This document shows, piece by piece, positions 52,996 through 61,115 of a stretch of 64,000 bases of DNA. The notes beneath the pieces are model-generated. The model was not told the DNA's origin, searched no databases, and was given only the letters and a program-made list of their open reading frames with translations. Position 1 is the first letter of the stretch. The number at the start of each line of letters is the position of its first letter. A program made the translations under genes and the position numbers. The DNA is from Candidatus Tepidifontimicrobium thermophilum (GTDB lineage: Bacteria; Sysuimicrobiota; Sysuimicrobiia; Sysuimicrobiales; Sysuimicrobiaceae), in assembly GCA_031459915.1 (NCBI GenBank), contig JAVKHO010000015.1:11099-75098 (forward strand). Direction: 5' to 3'.

Positions 52996-54552
52996 GTGCA
53001 GCTGGCGGTGTTGGACGGAGCCCGGACCATCGGAGGGACGAAGCTCTACCTGCGGGAGGGACGGGCCGGGTTCCTGGTGGACTTCGGTCTGAACTACCAG
53101 CGCTGGGGCCAGTACTTCGACGAGTTCCTGGGACCCCGCACGGCCCGCGGACTATTTGACCTGTGGCAGCTGGGACTGGTTCCGCAGGTGGGTGGGATCT
53201 ACCGCGGGGACCTGTTGGTGCCAGAGTTCTCCGCACCCCGGGAAGCCCCTGCCCTGGAGGTCCAGGCGGTGTTCCTCAGCCACGCGCACCTGGACCACTG
53301 CGGCCTGGTGGGCGTGCTCCGGTGCGACCTCCCCCTCGTGGCCTCGCGGACGACCCTGGCCATCCTCAAGGCGCTCCAGGACACCGGTCCCGCGGAGTTC
53401 TACGGCGAGCTTTCCTACTGCCGACTGCGCAGCCCCAACCGGTCCGGCGAGCTGGAGGCGGACCGCAGCGGCGCATGCGTGGGCCGCCCCGCATGTGCTG
53501 CGGATGGCACGCCATCCCCGCGGCTGCAGCGCCTGTGGACCACCCTGTCCAGGCAGCGGCGGGCCCTGGACCCGCGGTCCGTGGCTCCTCCCGCGGCTGC
53601 TTACGAGGGAGTGCGCGTGCGCGTCTACCCGGTGGACCACTCCGTGCCGGGAGCCGTGGCCTTTGCCTTCGAGTGCTCCGAGGGGCTCGTGGTGTACACG
53701 GGAGACCTGCGGCACCACGGCCGCCACGCCCACCTGGTGGACGCCCTCGTCGCGGACCTCCAGCGTGAGCGGGTACACGTTCTGGTGGTGGAGGGCACCC
53801 GCCTCACCCGGGAGACGCAAGACCAGGTCACGGAAGCCCAGGTGCTGGACAACGCCCGGAAGGTGGTGGCCTCACGGCCCGGCCGCCTCGTGGTGGCGGA
53901 CTTCGGCCCCCGCCAGGTGGAGCGGCTGGAGACCTTCCTCCAGGTGGCGGAGGAGACCGGCCGCTGTCTGGTGGTCCTGCCTAAGGACGGGTACCTGCTG
54001 GAGGCCCTGGCCGCTGCGGACCCGGGCTTTGACGGGATCCTCCAGCACCCCGCGCTGGTGTTCTTCAACCGGCCGCGCCTGAATCGCGACACCTGGTTGC
54101 GGGAGTTCACCAACCGGCACCGCCACCGCCTGGTGGACGCGGAGGCTGTCCGCCGGGACCCCGGAGGGTACCTGCTGGCGTTCAGCTTCTTCGACCTCGT
54201 GGACCTGCTGGACGTGGACCCACAGGACGGTGTGTACGTGTACTCGTCCTCCGAGGCGTACGGGGAGGATAGCCGGGTGGACTTCTGGCGGTTGTGGAAC
54301 TGGCTGCGCCGGCTAAACATGGAGCCGCACGGCTTCCGGTGGGAGGGCACGGACGAACGGGGGCGGCCCGCCTTCGGGGGCGGCTTCCACGCCAGCGGGC
54401 ACATCCACCCGGACGACCTACGGGACCTGATCCGGTCCATCCGCCCCCGCTACGTGGTCCCCGTGCACACGGAGAACCCCGCGTGGTTCGGAGAGAACCT
54501 CCGCGGCGAGCCCACCCAGGTGGTGCCGCTGGAGGACGGGGACGCCCTCTGA
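52996..54552 (+). CDS. MBL/beta-CASP nuclease (RNase J-like)
   Basis: IGG, DFG, SHAHLDH, VDHS.PG, YTGD.R, EGT, HASGH, PVHTE motifs. Confidence 0.85.
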   Translation: MQLAVLDGARTIGGTKLYLREGRAGFLVDFGLNYQRWGQYFDEFLGPRTARGLFDLWQLGLVPQVGGIYRGDLLVPEFSAPREAPALEVQAVFLSHAHLDHCGLVGVLRCDLPLVASRTTLAILKALQDTGPAEFYGELSYCRLRSPNRSGELEADRSGACVGRPACAADGTPSPRLQRLWTTLSRQRRALDPRSVAPPAAAYEGVRVRVYPVDHSVPGAVAFAFECSEGLVVYTGDLRHHGRHAHLVDALVADLQRERVHVLVVEGTRLTRETQDQVTEAQVLDNARKVVASRPGRLVVADFGPRQVERLETFLQVAEETGRCLVVLPKDGYLLEALAAADPGFDGILQHPALVFFNRPRLNRDTWLREFTNRHRHRLVDAEAVRRDPGGYLLAFSFFDLVDLLDVDPQDGVYVYSSSEAYGEDSRVDFWRLWNWLRRLNMEPHGFRWEGTDERGRPAFGGGFHASGHIHPDDLRDLIRSIRPRYVVPVHTENPAWFGENLRGEPTQVVPLEDGDAL

Positions 54553-54564
54553 GGCCCTTCCGCC

Positions 54565-55692
54565 TCACGCCCCCGCCTTCCGGTCCCGCGCCGCCACGCC
54601 CGCGGCGCGGGCCAGCTCCCGGTGGATGCGGCCGGTGCGCTCCACCTGCCCCTTGGCGGGGAACCGCTCGTAGAACCCGTCGGCCCGGAACATCCTTCGC
54701 AGCTCCGCCCACGGCTGCAGCCGTTCCTCCCAGCGGCGAACGCGCCCCTCTTCCGGTTCGGCGTCCGTGGCCGCCAGGTCCGCGCACACCCGGATCATGG
54801 CCTTGAGGGTCACCGGACGCGTCACCATGTAGTTGGGATTGCCCCAGGCGTCCTGCCACACCCGCTCCGCGGCACGGAGGAAGTCCCGCAGGATCCCGTA
54901 GTAGTCCTCGGGCCGTGCCCCCGTCCGCTCGATCTCCGGCCAGGTGGCCCGGGCCCAGCGGTGCAGCTCGTTGAACAGCTCCGCCTGCAGGATCCACTTC
55001 TCCTGGCGGCTCCTTCCGCCGGGCCGGTTGATCTTGTACCGCAGGGGGCTGGAGGGCTCCTCGTACAGCATGCGGGCCACGCGGGCCGCGAACTTCTTGT
55101 CCGGGGTGGCCTGCCACCAGGTCACGCGCTCGTACAGCTCCACCAGGTGGCTCTTGTTGATGCGGGTGGGCGTGGCGTTGATGATCACGAACATCTCCGC
55201 GGCGAAGTCCTCGCTGCGGCCGTCGAAGATCACGCACGGCACCTGGATGGTCCGGGCGTCCTCCGGCCGCTCGCGCCGGTAGAACTCCAGGGCCGCCAGG
55301 CGGTGCTGCCCGTCGATGATGAGGTACTTGCCCTCCGGCTCCCGCAGGTCCCCCACGCTCTCGTAGCGGTCCAAGGCCTCGAAGCGCAGCCGCTCCGGGG
55401 TGAACAGCAACACCGTGCCCGGAATGGGGGGCTGCTCGCCCGCGGTCTCGTAGAAGTTAAGGATGTCCCGGACCTTCCGCCTCGACAGCTGCCGCTGGAA
55501 GGCCCGGTCGCTGCGCTCGATGCGGGCGATGAACTGGGCGATCTCGTCCCCCTCCGGCGCCGGCTCCGGCGCGATGGCTTCCCCCTCCCCGTAGAACCGG
55601 CTCATGAAGCGCACCTTCGCCAGCAGGTCCTCCGCGCGGTACGCGACGAAGTAAAACACCCCGTCCTTCTGCCGGATCTGTGTGGCCAGCAC
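54565..55692 (-). CDS. DGQHR domain protein (DndB-like)
   Basis: FQR, IIDGQHRLAAL, F..IN motifs; GGGAGGTG RBS. Confidence 0.9.
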   Translation of the reverse strand: MLATQIRQKDGVFYFVAYRAEDLLAKVRFMSRFYGEGEAIAPEPAPEGDEIAQFIARIERSDRAFQRQLSRRKVRDILNFYETAGEQPPIPGTVLLFTPERLRFEALDRYESVGDLREPEGKYLIIDGQHRLAALEFYRRERPEDARTIQVPCVIFDGRSEDFAAEMFVIINATPTRINKSHLVELYERVTWWQATPDKKFAARVARMLYEEPSSPLRYKINRPGGRSRQEKWILQAELFNELHRWARATWPEIERTGARPEDYYGILRDFLRAAERVWQDAWGNPNYMVTRPVTLKAMIRVCADLAATDAEPEEGRVRRWEERLQPWAELRRMFRADGFYERFPAKGQVERTGRIHRELARAAGVAARDRKAGA

Positions 55693-55724
55693 AGCGACAC
55701 CTCCCGGGTCTTGCGCCTGGCTCT

Positions 55725-55743
55725 ATTGTAGGAACACGTGTAC
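55725..55743 (-). promoter_or_regulatory. -10 element with adjacent LexA-like box upstream of the DGQHR gene
   Basis: TACAAT on the minus strand (55725-55730); GAAC-ACGT-GTAC (55732-55743), one mismatch from GAAC-N4-GTTC. Confidence 0.55.
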
Positions 55744-55747
55744 GCCT

Positions 55748-55903
55748 CTAGAGCCGGAACAGCCGGCCCATCCACCGGCCCAGCACCTTGTTGCGCAACC
55801 GGCGGGCGATCCGCCGCGGGTTCCCCGAGGAGAACACCTCCAAGTCCCGCAGGAACCTGGCCAGCCGGTACAGGAGGCTCACTGCCCTCCGCAAACCCCG
55901 CAC
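55748..55903 (-). CDS. small basic protein (51 aa, below the ORF-track cutoff)
   Basis: MRGLRRAVSLLYRLARFLRDLEVFSSGNPRRIARRLRNKVLGRWMGRLFRL; typical GC3 usage; starts 15 nt after the smc stop; alternative start 55882. Confidence 0.65.
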   Translation of the reverse strand: MRGLRRAVSLLYRLARFLRDLEVFSSGNPRRIARRLRNKVLGRWMGRLFRL

Positions 55904-55918
55904 GCCCACCCCCGTCTT

Positions 55919-58900
55919 TCAGCTCACCGCCACCGGCTCGGGAGTCTTGCGCGCGATCCGCATGGACACCACCGAGGAGACCCCCGGCTCCTCCGTGGTC
56001 ACGCCGTACAGCACGTCCGCGGCCTCCATGGTGGCCTTGTTGTGGGTGATGATCACCACCTGGCTGCGCTGCGCCAGCTCCCGCAGCAGCTCCACCACCC
56101 GTCTCGTGTTGGCGTCGTCCAGGGCGGCCTCGATCTCGTCGAACACGCAGAAGGGGCTCGGGTGGGTCCGCAGGAGGGCGAATACCAATGCCAGGGCCAC
56201 CAGCACCCGCTCGCCCCCGGACAGCGCTCCCAGGGACCGGACCTTCTTCCCAGGGGGCTGGGCGCTGACTTCCACCCCTTCCTCCCCCTGCTCGGCGGTC
56301 ACCAGCTCCAGAAACGCACGCCCGCCCCCGAAAAGCCGGCGGAAGCAGTCCTGGAAGTGCCGGTTCACCTCCTCGAAGGTCTGGCGGAACCGCCTGCGCA
56401 GGACGGACTCGAGCCGGGACGCCAGCTCAAAGACCAGCCCCCCGGCCTCCTCCACGTCCCGGGCCTGCGCGGACAGGGCTTCGTAGCGCGCCTGCACGTC
56501 CCGGTAGTCTTCCAGCGCCTGCAGGTTCACCGAACCCAGACCGGCCAGTAAGCCCCGCAAGGCCTCCACCTCCCCCAGCAGGGCCTCCCGGTCCAACCGC
56601 TCGGGCGCCTGGGCGTCCAGGACCTCCGGAGAGGCCTGGTAGGTCTCCCAGAGCCGACGCTCCACCGCCCCGAGCTCCGCGGCCACCTGCGCCAGCCGCA
56701 GGTCCAACCGGTGTACCTCGTCCTGCGCTGCCTGGCACGTCTCGCGGGCGGAGGCCAGCTGGGGCTCCAGCTCCGCGGCAGACCGTTCCTCCCTGCCTCG
56801 AGCGGTATCGGCCTCCTCGGCCCGCGCCCGGAGTTCCTCCAGACGCTGGCGGGACCGCGCGGCCCGCTCCGTCGCCAGCTCCGCCAGCTCCCGGAACTGC
56901 CGGAGCTCAGCTTCCCGGGTCTCCAGCTCGGCGTGCAACCGCGCCTGCTGGGCCTCCAGCAGAGCGTCCTCCCGTTCCAGATCCTGTAGCCGCGCCCTCG
57001 CCGCCTGGTTGTGGGCCTGCAGCTCCGCGTGCCTCACACGCAGGGCGGCCACCTCTGCGGCGGCGGCCTGTAACGCTGCCTCCGCCTCCTGCTGCCGCCG
57101 GCGCGCGGCCTCCAGCTTCCTACGGGCCTCGGCCAGCTCCAGGCCCAGTCGGTCCAGGTCCGCGGCCCACCGGGCCTCCTCCTCCCGGGCTTCCTGCAGC
57201 TGCTGGTGGACCTGGCCCAGCTCCGCCCGTACCTGCTCCTCCAGTCCCGGCAGGCCCGCCTGCCTGGCCTCCGCCCGCGCCAGCTCTTCCCGCACCCGGT
57301 GCACGTGAGCCTGAAGCCGCTCCACCCGCTCCTGCTCGCCGGCGAGTCGGCGTTCCGCGGCGTCCCGCTCCGCGTCCAGGGCGCGCGCCTGCTCCTTCAG
57401 GTCCTCCTGCGCCCGGTCCAGGTCGGCCAGGGACTCCCGCAGCGCGGCGATCTCCTGTACCCGCCCCAGCGGGGTCGAAGAACCGTTACGGCGGACCGCC
57501 AGCAGGCCGTCGCCCGTCAGCACCTCCCCCGAGAGGGTAACCAGGCGACCGCGCCACCCGGACGACCAGACCTGCAACGCCGCCTCCAGGTCCCGCACCA
57601 CCAGGGTGCCGTGCAGCCCGGCCCTGACCGAACGCTCCACAAGAGGCGGACAGCGGACCAGGTCCTGAGCCCACCCCACGACCCCCTCTACCCCGGCCGG
57701 CGCCGGCAGCTCAGGACCGGCGTCACGCGCACCCTCCGTCACGAGGAAGGAGGCACTCTCCGCGTCCAGCTCCTCGAGGACCCTGAGGGCGGCCTGCCAC
57801 GAGTCCACCACCAGGGCAAAGAGCCGGTCCGCGAGGGCAGCTTCCACCGCGCGCCGGTGCTCGGGGTCTGCGTCCAGGAGGTCCACGAGGGCCCCCCGTA
57901 CCCCCGCGAACCGCCCCGGCTCGTTCCGCTGGGCCAGCAGCACGCGGCGCGCTCCCCCCTCGTAGCCCACCAGCTGCGCCTGCGCTTCCTCTAGGACCGC
58001 GAGCCGCGCCTGCTCCCTCTCCCGCCGCAGCTGCAGCTCCCGGCGTGCCTGCTCCAGCTCCGCCCGGCGGGCTGCGAGCTCGTCCAGGCGCTTGCGGAGT
58101 TCGGCCAGCTGGGCCGTGAGGGTCCGCAGCCGCACGTGGACGTCCTCTTCCTCGGCCCGCAGGGCCGCCCGGCGGGCTTCCAGCTCGAGGCGCTCCGCCT
58201 CCAGCCGGTCCAGCTGAGCTGCAAGGGCCTGCGCGCGCGACGCGAGGGCTTCCTGACGAGCCCGCGACGCGTTCCGACCACTGTGCGCCTGGGCGCGGGC
58301 GTGTTCCAGTTCCACCACGTCCGCCCGGGCCGCCTCCACGTCTGCCCGGGCCTGCTCGGCTCTTGCCTGGCAACCTTCCAGGTCCTGCTGCATCTGCTGC
58401 AACTGACGGGCGCACGCCTCCGCGGCCTGCGCCCCCTCGGCCACCTCCTCGCGGAGGCGGGCCGCGGACGCACTGCAACCCTCCCGCTCCTGCACCAGCC
58501 GGTCGAGCTCCTGGCGGATGCGGTCCAGCATCTGCGCGGCCCCCGAGGCGCGTTCCTCACACAGCCGGGCGTCCTGTTCGGCGCGGCCCGCTTCCTCCAG
58601 GGCCCTTACCACCTCCGCCTGGAGGCCAGCCAGCACCTGCGCGGCCTGCTGTGCCCGGGCCCGGGCCAGCGAAAGCTCCCGCTCCACCGCCTCCACGGCC
58701 GCCTGCGCCTGGGCGTGCCGCTGCCGGGCCGCCTCCACCTGGGCGGAGATCCGCCGGAGCTGGGCCCGCACCCTCCGGTACTCGCCCAGCTGCAGGTACA
58801 GCTCGGCGCGGCGCAACCGCTCCTGGTAGTCACGGTGTAGGCTCGCCCGCTCCGCCTGCCGCGCCAGCTCCTGGGCGCGTCCGTACAGTTCCGCCAGCCG

Positions 58901-59479
58901 GTCCAGGACCCGCGTCAGGTTCTGGCGCGCGTGCTCGAGCCGCCGCGCTGCCTCGTGGTGGCGGCGCTTGTACCGCGAAAGCCCCGCGGCCTCCTCCAGC
59001 ATGGCCCGCCGTTCCGCGGGGGAAGCGTCCAGGACCGCGTCCACCTCGCCCTGGCCGACCATGGCGTAGGCGCGCCCGCCCAGGCCGGTCCCGAGGAACA
59101 GAGCCTGGACGTCCCGCAGCCGGCACGGCGTCCGGTTCAGGAGGAACTCGCTGTCGCCGGCCCGGGTGGCCCGGCGGGTGAGGGTAACCTCGGTGAACTC
59201 CACCGGCAGGACGCCGTCCTCGTTGTCCACCGTCAGGTGGACCTCCGCCATCCCGTGCGCCCGCCGGGTGCTGGTGCCCGCGAAGATCACGTCCTCGGTA
59301 CGCTGACTGCGCAGGGCCCTCCAGGAGGTCTCCCCCAGCACCCACCGGATGGCGTCTGCCAGGTTGCTCTTGCCGGACCCGTTGGGCCCTACGATGGCGG
59401 TGATCCCGGGTCCGAACAGCAGCTCCGTGCGGTCCGCGAAGGTCTTGAACCCACTGAGCTCCAGCCGCTTCAGGTACAT
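55919..59479 (-). CDS. smc: chromosome segregation protein SMC
   Basis: GFKTF, GPNGSGKSN, Q-loop, long coiled coils, hinge, LSGGE signature, FDEIEAALD; ~1186 aa. Confidence 0.95.
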   Translation of the reverse strand: MYLKRLELSGFKTFADRTELLFGPGITAIVGPNGSGKSNLADAIRWVLGETSWRALRSQRTEDVIFAGTSTRRAHGMAEVHLTVDNEDGVLPVEFTEVTLTRRATRAGDSEFLLNRTPCRLRDVQALFLGTGLGGRAYAMVGQGEVDAVLDASPAERRAMLEEAAGLSRYKRRHHEAARRLEHARQNLTRVLDRLAELYGRAQELARQAERASLHRDYQERLRRAELYLQLGEYRRVRAQLRRISAQVEAARQRHAQAQAAVEAVERELSLARARAQQAAQVLAGLQAEVVRALEEAGRAEQDARLCEERASGAAQMLDRIRQELDRLVQEREGCSASAARLREEVAEGAQAAEACARQLQQMQQDLEGCQARAEQARADVEAARADVVELEHARAQAHSGRNASRARQEALASRAQALAAQLDRLEAERLELEARRAALRAEEEDVHVRLRTLTAQLAELRKRLDELAARRAELEQARRELQLRREREQARLAVLEEAQAQLVGYEGGARRVLLAQRNEPGRFAGVRGALVDLLDADPEHRRAVEAALADRLFALVVDSWQAALRVLEELDAESASFLVTEGARDAGPELPAPAGVEGVVGWAQDLVRCPPLVERSVRAGLHGTLVVRDLEAALQVWSSGWRGRLVTLSGEVLTGDGLLAVRRNGSSTPLGRVQEIAALRESLADLDRAQEDLKEQARALDAERDAAERRLAGEQERVERLQAHVHRVREELARAEARQAGLPGLEEQVRAELGQVHQQLQEAREEEARWAADLDRLGLELAEARRKLEAARRRQQEAEAALQAAAAEVAALRVRHAELQAHNQAARARLQDLEREDALLEAQQARLHAELETREAELRQFRELAELATERAARSRQRLEELRARAEEADTARGREERSAAELEPQLASARETCQAAQDEVHRLDLRLAQVAAELGAVERRLWETYQASPEVLDAQAPERLDREALLGEVEALRGLLAGLGSVNLQALEDYRDVQARYEALSAQARDVEEAGGLVFELASRLESVLRRRFRQTFEEVNRHFQDCFRRLFGGGRAFLELVTAEQGEEGVEVSAQPPGKKVRSLGALSGGERVLVALALVFALLRTHPSPFCVFDEIEAALDDANTRRVVELLRELAQRSQVVIITHNKATMEAADVLYGVTTEEPGVSSVVSMRIARKTPEPVAVS

Positions 59480-60761: not shown

Positions 60762-61115
60762 TCACTGCCCGCCCTCCACCAGCTCGAGCAGGTCCGACAG
60801 CCGGAACCGACGGTGCCCGCCCGCGGTCCGGGTGCACCGCAGCTTTCCCTGGTCTGTGTAGCGACGGAGGGTGGCTTTGCTGACGTTGAGGATCAACGAC
60901 GCCTCGTGCAGGGTGAGCTCGGGGTCCAGCAGGCGCCGGATGAGCTCCTCCCGGCTCTCCGAAAACGGCCGTCGGCCACCCCGAGGCGGCCGGGGAGGAG
61001 GCACGTCGATGGGCAGCGCCTCCTGTCGTGCCAGCCTGACCAGCTTGGCCCGCACGTCCGTACCTCCCCGCCGCCGGGCCCTGGCCGGTCCGTCGCCTGC
61101 TGACCGTCCGTCCAT
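60762..61115 (-). CDS. MerR/excisionase-type helix-turn-helix protein (BldC-like)
   Basis: LT..EA..IL.VS..TLRRY..QGKL..RTAGGHRRF; GAGGAGG RBS; alternative start 61055. Confidence 0.82.
   Translation of the reverse strand: MDGRSAGDGPARARRRGGTDVRAKLVRLARQEALPIDVPPPRPPRGGRRPFSESREELIRRLLDPELTLHEASLILNVSKATLRRYTDQGKLRCTRTAGGHRRFRLSDLLELVEGGQ

Follow-up and report, generated by a model that had tools for sequence, protein, structure and literature searches.

The 64,000-nucleotide stretch analyzed here (hereafter the window) comes from the genome of Candidatus Tepidifontimicrobium thermophilum and contains a gene for a stand-alone protein of the DGQHR domain family. According to our best explanation, to which we give an even chance, this gene encodes an SOS-controlled, nucleoside triphosphate (NTP)-gated DNA-binding factor, i.e. 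an acquired solo DGQHR protein that is possibly tied to break processing. In the window's genus, the gene has a promoter of its own in which a box that matches a variant of the lineage's LexA operator adjoins the -10 hexamer; in a sister genus of the same family, the gene stands last in a cluster headed by a canonical LexA box. LexA-type boxes would thus govern the DGQHR gene in two genera by different arrangements, which is the strongest support for a control by DNA damage.

The LexA operator of the order and its variant at the imuA-imuB-dnaE2 cassette

Each of the 29 lexA upstream regions in our tally, from which one locus of an unpublished genome is excluded, contains the motif GAAC-N4-GTTT, and C[GA]AAC-N4-GTTTG occurs without mismatch in 29 of 30 recA upstream regions, where it is located between a TTGACA -35 element and the -10 element. 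As defined from the upstream regions of these two genes, the LexA operator of the order is C[GA]AAC-N4-GTT[TC]G between -35 and -10. In the window genome, coding DNA (2.1 Mb) contains two exact copies and intergenic DNA (0.47 Mb) five, the latter preceding recA, recX, an intein-bearing dnaB and two other genes.

A search for boxes with one mismatch led to a cassette of imuA-like, imuB-like and dnaE2 genes in the window genome, outside the window (G000:C6:65328-70511). Its products are a RecA-like ImuA (NF033429, 38 bits, below the cutoff), an ImuB-like protein of the IMS family, and DnaE2 (NF004225, 1311 bits vs a cutoff of 939). The cassette promoter has the structure TTGAC-N9-CGAACACATGTACG-C-TATAA, with the box variant CGAAC-N4-GTACG. 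In all 12 orthologous cassette promoters a box lies between TTGAC and TATAA; the GTACG half is found in nine of them, namely in all 8 fetched genomes of the window's family and in one other, and the canonical GTTCG occupies the same position in the remaining three, which belong to remote genomes. LexA controls the imuA-imuB-dnaE2 cassette in other bacteria. In the literature, as far as it was available to us, the cassette is termed DNA-damage-inducible. Because GTACG stands here in place of GTTCG in the operator of a classical damage-inducible cassette, it appears to be a tolerated replacement.

A role of the DGQHR protein as the regulator that recognizes the GTACG boxes was rejected: four genomes in which no DGQHR gene was found, G005 (83% complete), G007, G009 and G031, keep the GTACG box at imuA.

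Some observations on the regulon and its genes stand apart from the DGQHR gene. The exact box CAAACGTAGGTTCG (G000:C3:73903-73916) lies 20 nucleotides (nt) upstream of the intein-containing dnaB (domains DnaB_C, DnaB and Intein_splicing), which makes this dnaB an unusual candidate member of the SOS regulon. Most genomes of the order, including those of the sister genus and of the family's third genus, possess two lexA matches above the cutoff, and the window's genus has one. Furthermore, the recA match of G016 and G039 is split in two inside one open frame of ~725 residues, which suggests a RecA intein in some genomes.

The promoter of the DGQHR gene

On the minus strand, the interval from the stop codon (TAG) of the preceding small open reading frame (sORF) to the start of the DGQHR gene reads AGGC-GTAC-ACGT-GTTC-C-TACAAT, 19 nt, GGGAGG, 7 nt, GTG. 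A first interpretation made from the letters of the window (the sequence-only reading) had noticed a TACAAT -10 abutting GAAC-ACGT-GTAC, and both elements are indeed present (Table 1). The spacing box-C-TAnAAT matches that of the imuA promoter, and in two relatives the box of the DGQHR gene is CGAACACGTGTACG, a 14-mer identical to the imuA box of genome G006. The proteins encoded by the DGQHR gene and by the cassette are unrelated, and the clear TTGAC -35 of the cassette has no counterpart at the DGQHR promoter, but in the same genomes both promoters share the operator variant CGAAC-N4-GTACG and its placement relative to the -10.

A matrix of 54 unique 16-mers from lexA, recA and imuA gives the window box 15.1 bits. 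When both strands of the 2.6-Mb genome are scanned, this puts it in 14th place among all 16-mers, and in 11th place when only intergenic sites are counted. Under the clade LexA matrix it is the sole site of at least 12 bits in the window. Intergenic sites of at least 15 bits number 8, vs 1.0 +/- 1.0 in 30 dinucleotide shuffles. Of the six genomes of the genus with the gene, window genome included, five keep the box at 15.1-19.9 bits, the orthologous boxes among them scoring 16.5, 19.9, 16.4 and 15.9 bits. When the six promoters are aligned, half-sites, -10 and ribosome-binding site stand out as conserved islands from a varying 4-nt spacer and varying flanks; the -10 is TACAAT in five genomes and TAGAAT in one. 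Genome G007 of the same genus, which has smc and the sORF and lacks the DGQHR gene, shows no box behind them.

By comparison, these results support the interpretation of the box as a putative LexA operator. An operator of the CGAAC-N4-GTACG type over the spacer and the -10 leads us to expect repression by LexA and induction by DNA damage.

Several points weigh against this interpretation. The window box departs twice from C[GA]AAC-N4-GTT[TC]G, and with a matrix of lexA and recA sites only (42 unique 16-mers) it scores 6.4 bits, which is the 166th of 184 sites above 6 bits and the 40th of the intergenic ones. The imuA box itself falls to rank 19 under this matrix. Owing to this low score, the case depends on whether the imuA-type variant is admitted as an operator. 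The G003 box has GTGC as its half-site and reaches 8.6 bits; moreover, the six genomes are close kin and hence not independent. Unlike recA and imuA, the DGQHR gene has no acceptable -35, and a sigma-70 scan gave no promoter here. Of the 11 best-scoring intergenic sites, five adjoin genes without a link to repair (a NADH dehydrogenase subunit, cupin/TctC, a periplasmic binding protein, MerR and MoaA/peptidase M16), so that a high score is not proof of SOS membership. Finally, a scan with simple patterns of the 300 nt upstream of the DGQHR gene in the best 80 relative loci detected GAAC-N4-GTWY in 4, all of the window's genus, CTGT-N8-ACAG in 3 scattered loci, and TGTTC-N4-GAACA in none; outside the family, no consistent SOS box emerged from these patterns and loci. 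The LexA-like box of the sequence-only reading is supported as regards the imuA-type variant, its geometry relative to the -10 and its retention in five of six promoters; with the narrower lexA-recA matrix, its score is weak.

The palindrome could instead serve some other regulator or the autoregulation of the DGQHR gene by its product, or be promoter sequence preserved by close kinship, and the gene could be constitutive or co-transcribed with smc, which we regard as doubtful but as a serious alternative. It would account for the low score with the lexA-recA matrix, the poor -35, the conservation of the same half-site mismatch, and the several equal-scoring sites beside genes without a link to repair, and it has a parallel in the autoregulation of DndB reported in the accessible parts of PMC4507180 and PMC10853773. 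Concerning co-transcription, the metatranscriptome contig X20 (55628-55838) spans the end of the sORF and the start of the DGQHR gene, although DNA carry-over is possible for this contig; some read-through into the DGQHR gene from smc and the sORF is possible. Contigs from two RNA libraries of one study cover parts of the DGQHR gene and smc, and one RNA-library contig also spans the convergent junction 54552/54565; these contigs carry no strand or condition information. In RNA run X21, of which ~3% was sampled, 0 reads mapped to the locus. Against a palindrome unrelated to LexA, however, the same variant is found at imuA-imuB-dnaE2, even in the four genomes where no DGQHR gene was found, and replaces there the canonical LexA box seen in remote genomes; the half-sites are kept while the spacer between them varies; and the Burkholderiales orthologues, at 67% identity, lack such a palindrome.

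The nurA-herA-sbcD-sbcC cluster of the sister genus

In all three sister-genus genomes (loci L191-L193 and L005), a canonical box, TCGAACCCGTGTTCGA (CCGAAC... in one), lies between TTGCGA and TATGAT. It is located ~7 kb upstream of the DGQHR gene and heads the co-directional genes nurA, herA, sbcD, sbcC and DGQHR; immediately before the DGQHR gene, none of the three genomes has a box. The assignment of nurA is based on E 9e-21 to NurA of PDB entry 7f6d and on 24 bits to Pfam NurA, that of herA on E 9e-157 to HerA of the same entry. Of all the contexts found, this cluster alone points to a process: the end processing of double-strand breaks. Homologs of nurA, herA, sbcD and sbcC were not found in the window genome at E 1e-8. 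A point against shared control is the 58-nt gap between sbcC and the DGQHR gene, which leaves their co-transcription in the sister genus presumptive. As to the conservation of an upstream box, which the sequence-only reading had proposed to check, it holds within the family, in five of six genomes of the window's genus and, as the canonical box at the head of the cluster, in all three of the sister genus; outside the family it does not hold.

Gene context and the linkage to smc

In the window, smc, the sORF and the DGQHR gene are three consecutive genes on the minus strand, as the sequence-only reading had described them. It had further suggested that the product acts with or near SMC, and had proposed to look for the order smc-sORF-DGQHR in related genomes. 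This order is found in all six genomes of the genus that carry the gene, window genome counted; among the best 80 relative loci, it occurs in 5, all of the window's genus, and orthologues outside the genus are not linked to smc.

The sORF has no family match, and the ESM Atlas gave unnamed clusters only. It is kept behind smc in the five relatives of the genus (g1) with a DGQHR gene (75-95% identity) as well as in G007; in the family's two other genera, no such sORF was found after smc. G007 is 96% complete; its smc and sORF are followed by an unrelated 213-residue gene, and the DGQHR gene was not found anywhere in this genome. Since G007 keeps smc and the sORF without the DGQHR gene, we assign the sORF to smc and regard the DGQHR gene as accessory. 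We read its position behind smc as incidental and local to one genus.

Nevertheless, the DGQHR protein could be a ParB-like partner of SMC-family ATPases which loads or regulates SMC in the window's genus, or SbcC/Rad50 in the sister genus. Its gene immediately follows smc in 6/6 gene-carrying genomes of the former, and sbcC, which encodes an SMC-like ABC ATPase, in 3/3 genomes of the latter; the probable ParB/Srx fold and the predicted dimer of the N-terminal domain (see below) are in line with such a role, as are the DndB-DndD-DndE triads described in what was available of PMC10853773. We consider this unlikely, because the linkage to smc is restricted to one genus, G007 retains smc and the sORF without the gene, the gene has its own promoter and box, and a canonical ParB is encoded elsewhere in the genome (TIGR00180, 184.6 bits, G000:C1:122967-123491). 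In addition, an SMC-like neighbor is found only at L005 among 18 loci outside the Burkholderiales, and at none of 29 further loci.

The neighborhoods of relatives were clustered with a filter on third-position GC, as this is DNA of 72% GC with antisense shadow ORFs, and the further relatives were searched with an alignment of five divergent representatives. In the Burkholderiales, the DGQHR gene lies between a two-component pair of the RisS/RisA type and a RidA gene, with DUF1800-DUF1501 sometimes inserted upstream. DNA-related neighbors at the 18 other loci are SbcD-SbcC (L005), a UvrD-exonuclease helicase 9 nt upstream (L010), DnaB (L014 and L016, the latter also with a DEAD/DUF3516 helicase), a DnaE-type polymerase (L051), HNH (L017), and Cas6 or Cse2 (L006, L033). 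The 29 further loci, from Planctomycetota, Verrucomicrobiota, Bacteroidota and others, have heterogeneous housekeeping neighbors, and the only DNA-related ones are topoisomerase IV/gyrase A at two loci and a ParA-like ATPase at one. That the neighbors elsewhere are mostly unrelated to DNA speaks against our best explanation. As no partner is conserved, the DGQHR gene has to be counted as truly solo.

Upstream of the DGQHR gene, the Burkholderiales loci L011-L080 possess a conserved promoter-like block, (T)CTCGCnTT, ~15-17 nt and then GCTAGAATG, and a conserved leader of 60-90 nt, e.g. ...AATGTCGCAGGCATAAAAA...GGGAGACAGGA or ...CAAGTACTTACAACAA...GGGGATCAGG. Block and leader suggest a separate regulation in this order.

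Membership of the protein in the DGQHR domain family

The protein matches the DGQHR domain profile TIGR03187 with 128.4 bits (cutoff 58.85), its residues 3-306 aligning with profile positions 1-275 of 276. It stays below the cutoff of every specific equivalog: DpdB NF041060 gives 53.1 bits over residues 50-309 (cutoff 300; PADLOC DpdB 59.7 bits), DndB TIGR03233 18 bits (cutoff 328), and DGQHR_dnd_1 49.2 bits (cutoff 450). The Pfam family DndB (PF14072) gives 28.3 bits vs a cutoff of 29.1; in Pfam, DndB and a weak GmrSD_N are the only matches, and the ParB family is not among them. For the relatives, Pfam DndB is likewise the sole precomputed family, and their source names are "DGQHR domain-containing protein" or "hypothetical protein" only.

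The window genome, which is 96% complete, contains one DGQHR gene and one lexA (251.8 bits vs a cutoff of 110.95), and yielded no match to DndC (TIGR03183), DndD (TIGR03185) or DpdA (NF041059); DndE was not searched for. The genome searches proposed by the sequence-only reading thus returned lexA and a canonical ParB, and neither DndC nor DndD. Because the scores are below cutoff, partner matches are lacking and ParB is encoded elsewhere, the protein is, on sequence grounds, a member of the DGQHR domain family only, and not DndB, DpdB or ParB. With no DndC, DndD or DpdA match in the genome, it is not a regulator of a Dnd or Dpd cluster either, in agreement, as far as Dnd is concerned, with the sequence-only reading.

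The N-terminus MLATQIRQKD... aligns with those of orthologues. Besides the DGQHR motif, Q66-R67 and N172 are invariant in 27/27 aligned relatives and E166 is nearly so; the invariant residues group in the segments FQR (65-67), DGQHR (127-131) and EMFVIIN (166-172), which presumably correspond to the NTP motifs of DUF262/GmrS proteins. In the C-terminal domain, the conserved motif is GFYERFPAKGQVER.

DpdB, a ParB-like ATPase, is the best-scoring characterized family, but the score is far under its cutoff, the window contains no dpd cluster and the genome has no DpdA match. With DndB, the protein shares the DGQHR motif and domain and, according to its model, an N-terminal domain of the ParB/Srx type; it differs in that it is below the DndB cutoffs, stands alone in a genome without a DndC or DndD match, and is far more conserved, and no dnd genes are located beside any of the relatives' loci scanned. 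The CTP-dependent DNA clamps ParB, Noc and KorB probably have the same fold class in the N-terminal domain and resemble the protein in its predicted head-to-head dimer of N-terminal domains with motif residues at the interface, as well as in the vicinity of smc in the window's genus. What is different is the C-terminal domain, which has no known fold match, the lack of a ParB sequence match, and the motif, which is DGQHR and not the GERRxR of ParB.

According to the parts of the cited papers that were available, DndB is an ATP-modulated repressor of the dnd operon and a ParB-superfamily protein whose enzymatic roles are still open (PMC4507180, PMC10853773), and DpdB, together with DpdA and DpdC, is implicated in the Dpd DNA-modification system (PMC10164549). 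A preprint surveying ParB-CTPase folds, equally available in part, reports a DndB-like protein that bound ATP and GTP (bioRxiv 10.1101/2025.10.10.680097). In its presumed mode of action, the present protein comes closest to these NTP-gated DNA proteins of the ParB superfamily. Among the papers listed by full-text searches on DGQHR and on DndB with LexA and SOS, none deals, by title or abstract opening, with a solo DGQHR protein.

Distribution and conservation

The DGQHR gene is present in 9 of 41 related genomes, i.e. in the window genome and 8 of the 11 others of its family, and in none of the 29 genomes from the six other families of the order. At the level of the phylum, 9 of 94 genomes possess it, all from one family (G023, a negative genome in these tallies, is unpublished). 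This distribution, and the absence of the gene from the 96%-complete genome G007, do not agree with the "housekeeping-type" factor that the sequence-only reading had assumed; such patchiness argues for an acquisition of the gene.

Outside the phylum, the family is large. Of 600 pattern-matched stretches from a species-level genome collection, 419 encode DGQHR relatives, and clustering at 90% identity leaves at least 5,020 clusters with E <= 1e-40. Relatives occur in Burkholderiales, Gemmatimonadota, Verrucomicrobiota, Planctomycetota, Bacteroidota, Nitrospirota, Acidobacteriota and others, the nearest sets outside the phylum being 66-75% identical to the DGQHR protein. By record name, carriers include the cultured Pyrinomonas methylaliphatogenes, Nitrospira sp. 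Kam-Ns4a and Limisphaera sp. VF-2, whose promoters gave no LexA box in this analysis. Among 72,556 plasmid records there is no close relative, with only 2 distant partial matches, and 50,697 phage records gave zero matches. Between the two genera, the DGQHR proteins are 86-89% identical, compared with 87-88% for RecA and 42-46% for SMC; judged by these identities, the constraint on the DGQHR protein is at the level of RecA and unusually strong for an accessory gene. The 66-75% identity across phyla was not accepted as proof of recent transfer, because a RecA-like constraint explains it equally well.

An association with defence could take two forms: the protein could be a remnant or remote regulator of a Dnd, Dpd or Ssp system, or a stand-alone anti-phage nuclease or nucleotide-depleting NTPase of the ParB superfamily. 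Its closest characterized profiles are those of DpdB and DndB, SspE and BrxU are among the fold matches, the distribution is patchy, Cas6 or Cse2 are neighbors at two loci and HNH at one, and effector roles of ParB-superfamily proteins are discussed in the part of PMC10853773 that was available. Even so, we hold this to be very unlikely: the equivalog scores are far below cutoff and the Dnd and Dpd partners searched for are without a match in the genome, conservation at the RecA level is unusual for defence genes, plasmids and phages are nearly devoid of relatives, and the gene lies in an ordinary metabolic chromosome here and beside housekeeping genes at the 29 further loci.

Predicted structure

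The AlphaFold2 model, computed from 27 aligned relatives, has a mean predicted local distance difference test score (pLDDT) of 83.5 and a predicted template modeling score (pTM) of 0.62. Its N-terminal domain (about residues 10-177) is a mixed alpha/beta domain, and its best matches are without exception nucleotide-binding proteins of the ParB/Srx fold. In VIA-align, this domain matches PadC with Z 7.4 (root-mean-square deviation 3.5, 100 residues aligned), sulfiredoxin with 6.3, KorB and the N-terminal part of pNOB8 ParB with 5.7 each, free serine kinase (SerK) with 5.4 and SspE with 5.1. Foldseek against the PDB gives weak rows of ParB, Noc, KorB and Srx, none at E <= 0.001, and a sequence search of the PDB with the family profile has 0 matches at E up to 1. 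The model is consistent with the ParB/Srx fold class, and to that extent agrees with the fold proposed in the sequence-only reading; that every fold match stays at Z < 8 weighs against it. The C-terminal domain (about residues 190-366) is helical, is confidently modeled across most of residues 240-350 (pLDDT 87-98) and has no clear fold match, the best VIA-align rows being unrelated helical proteins at Z < 6; the ESM Atlas returned only DndB-family fragments for it.

A homodimer is predicted with a score of 0.74 vs 0.00 for the best control; the calibration mark is reached by 20 of 30 solved same-chain pairs and by 1 of 23 single chains. The runs have a contact agreement of at least 45% and a partner pLDDT of at least 72, and the predicted interface is located mostly in the N-terminal domain, with D127 and H130 within it. 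However, dimers of ParB N-terminal domains are among the solved structures, so that the pass may reflect likeness to them.

A ParB/Srx-fold phosphotransferase that acts on a small molecule or protein, as sulfiredoxin, SerK and SbnI do, and not on DNA, is highly improbable: the fold matches to sulfiredoxin, to serine kinase 5x0b (Z 5.4, 25% identity over 79 residues) and to SbnI (Z 4.8), the enzyme-like, very high constraint and the many metabolic neighbors in other phyla would fit it, but the sequence places the protein in the DGQHR/DndB clade and not with Srx or SerK, its C-terminal part is basic and resembles DndB-family fragments, and LexA boxes and the nurA-herA-sbcCD cluster accompany its gene.

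The locus and its surroundings

Table 1. Features of the DGQHR locus, in positions of the window.
Feature	Positions	Strand	Remarks
Stand-alone DGQHR-domain coding sequence	54565-55692	minus	375 residues, GTG start; open reading frame and translation
DGQHR motif D127-G128-Q129-H130-R131 (codons)	55300-55314	minus	invariant in 27/27 aligned relatives
N-terminal domain (putative ParB/Srx fold), residues 1-190	55123-55692	minus	acidic, pI 5.4; predicted NTP-binding and dimerizing part
C-terminal all-helical basic domain, residues 191-375	54568-55122	minus	pI 10.2; candidate DNA-binding part
LexA-box-like operator (putative)	55731-55744	plus-strand sequence given	GGAACACGTGTACG; core GAAC-N4-GTAC at 55732-55743 (GAAC-ACGT-GTAC)
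-10 hexamer TACAAT	55725-55730	minus	directly abuts the box
Ribosome-binding site GGGAGG	55700-55705	minus	7 nt ahead of the GTG start; conserved in the promoter alignment
Arginine-rich sORF, 53 residues	55748-55909	minus	pI 12; between smc and the DGQHR gene; context
smc	55919-59479	minus	ATG at 59479, product MYLKRLEL...; TIGR02168 910.7 bits vs cutoff 567; upstream neighbor, context only
Metallo-beta-lactamase (MBL)/beta-CASP (RNase J-like) gene	52996-54552	plus	convergent downstream neighbor, context only

The window has a GC content of 72%. According to Pfam scans of the 7 ORFs at the locus and 43 further predicted ORFs, 13 of the latter without any family match, its families are metabolic and housekeeping ones; Dnd, Dpd, restriction and transposase/integrase families were not among them, as the sequence-only reading had stated for the window. 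Rfam gave zero matches at the gathering score in the whole window. The MBL/beta-CASP gene ends 12-13 nt from the stop codon of the convergent DGQHR gene and is syntenic in the five relatives of the window's genus that carry the latter; its product matches Lactamase_B, Lactamase_B_2 and RMMBL in Pfam and TIGR00649 with 70.8 bits vs a cutoff of 400.

Near-identical copies of the locus occur in hot-spring metagenomes from 14 studies. A strain variant in DNA run X11 has 4 additional bases at window position 54559, inside the gap between the convergent MBL/beta-CASP and DGQHR genes. Upstream of the block of a glycosyltransferase gene and smc, the minus strand encodes a small DNA-binding protein of the HTH_17/MerR type (60762-61115); HTH_17 is also known from excisionases, and no other mobility gene is nearby.

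Proposed role and significance

Taken as a model, the SOS-controlled, NTP-gated factor can be outlined as follows. A solo DGQHR family would have been acquired by the ancestor of one family in this hot-spring phylum. In the window's genus, the gene would be transcribed from its own promoter, with a LexA operator of the CGAAC-N4-GTACG type occupying the spacer and the -10; in the sister genus, it would be expressed as the last gene of the break-processing cluster behind the canonical LexA box. The acidic N-terminal domain would bind nucleotide via FQR, DGQHR and EMFVIIN and dimerize head to head, the basic helical C-terminal domain would contact DNA, and the whole protein would work on damaged DNA as a binding factor gated by NTP.

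A more far-reaching view, which we regard as decidedly unlikely, is that DGQHR proteins are general ParB-type partners of SMC-like ABC ATPases, with the pairs ParB/SMC, DndB/DndD, and the solo family with SbcC-Rad50 or SMC. The solo protein would then be a damage-induced, NTP-gated clamp that marks broken or stalled DNA and recruits or gates SMC-family machines. Such a clamp would explain the conservation at the RecA level, the place behind sbcC or smc in two genera, and the LexA boxes.

For an uncultivated hot-spring phylum, the analysis defines a LexA operator from sequence comparison and indicates that the GTACG half-site is a tolerated variant. The solo DGQHR family is large, spans many phyla, is constrained about as strongly as RecA, and is annotated only as "DGQHR domain-containing protein"; with a LexA-type operator in one genus and membership in a LexA-boxed nurA-herA-sbcD-sbcC cluster in another, the locus provides a first testable lead for it. 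If the preferred explanation of an SOS-controlled, NTP-gated DNA-binding factor is true, an NTPase of the ParB/Srx fold would join the bacterial DNA-damage response, and NTP-gated ParB-like switches would extend beyond chromosome partition and DNA modification.

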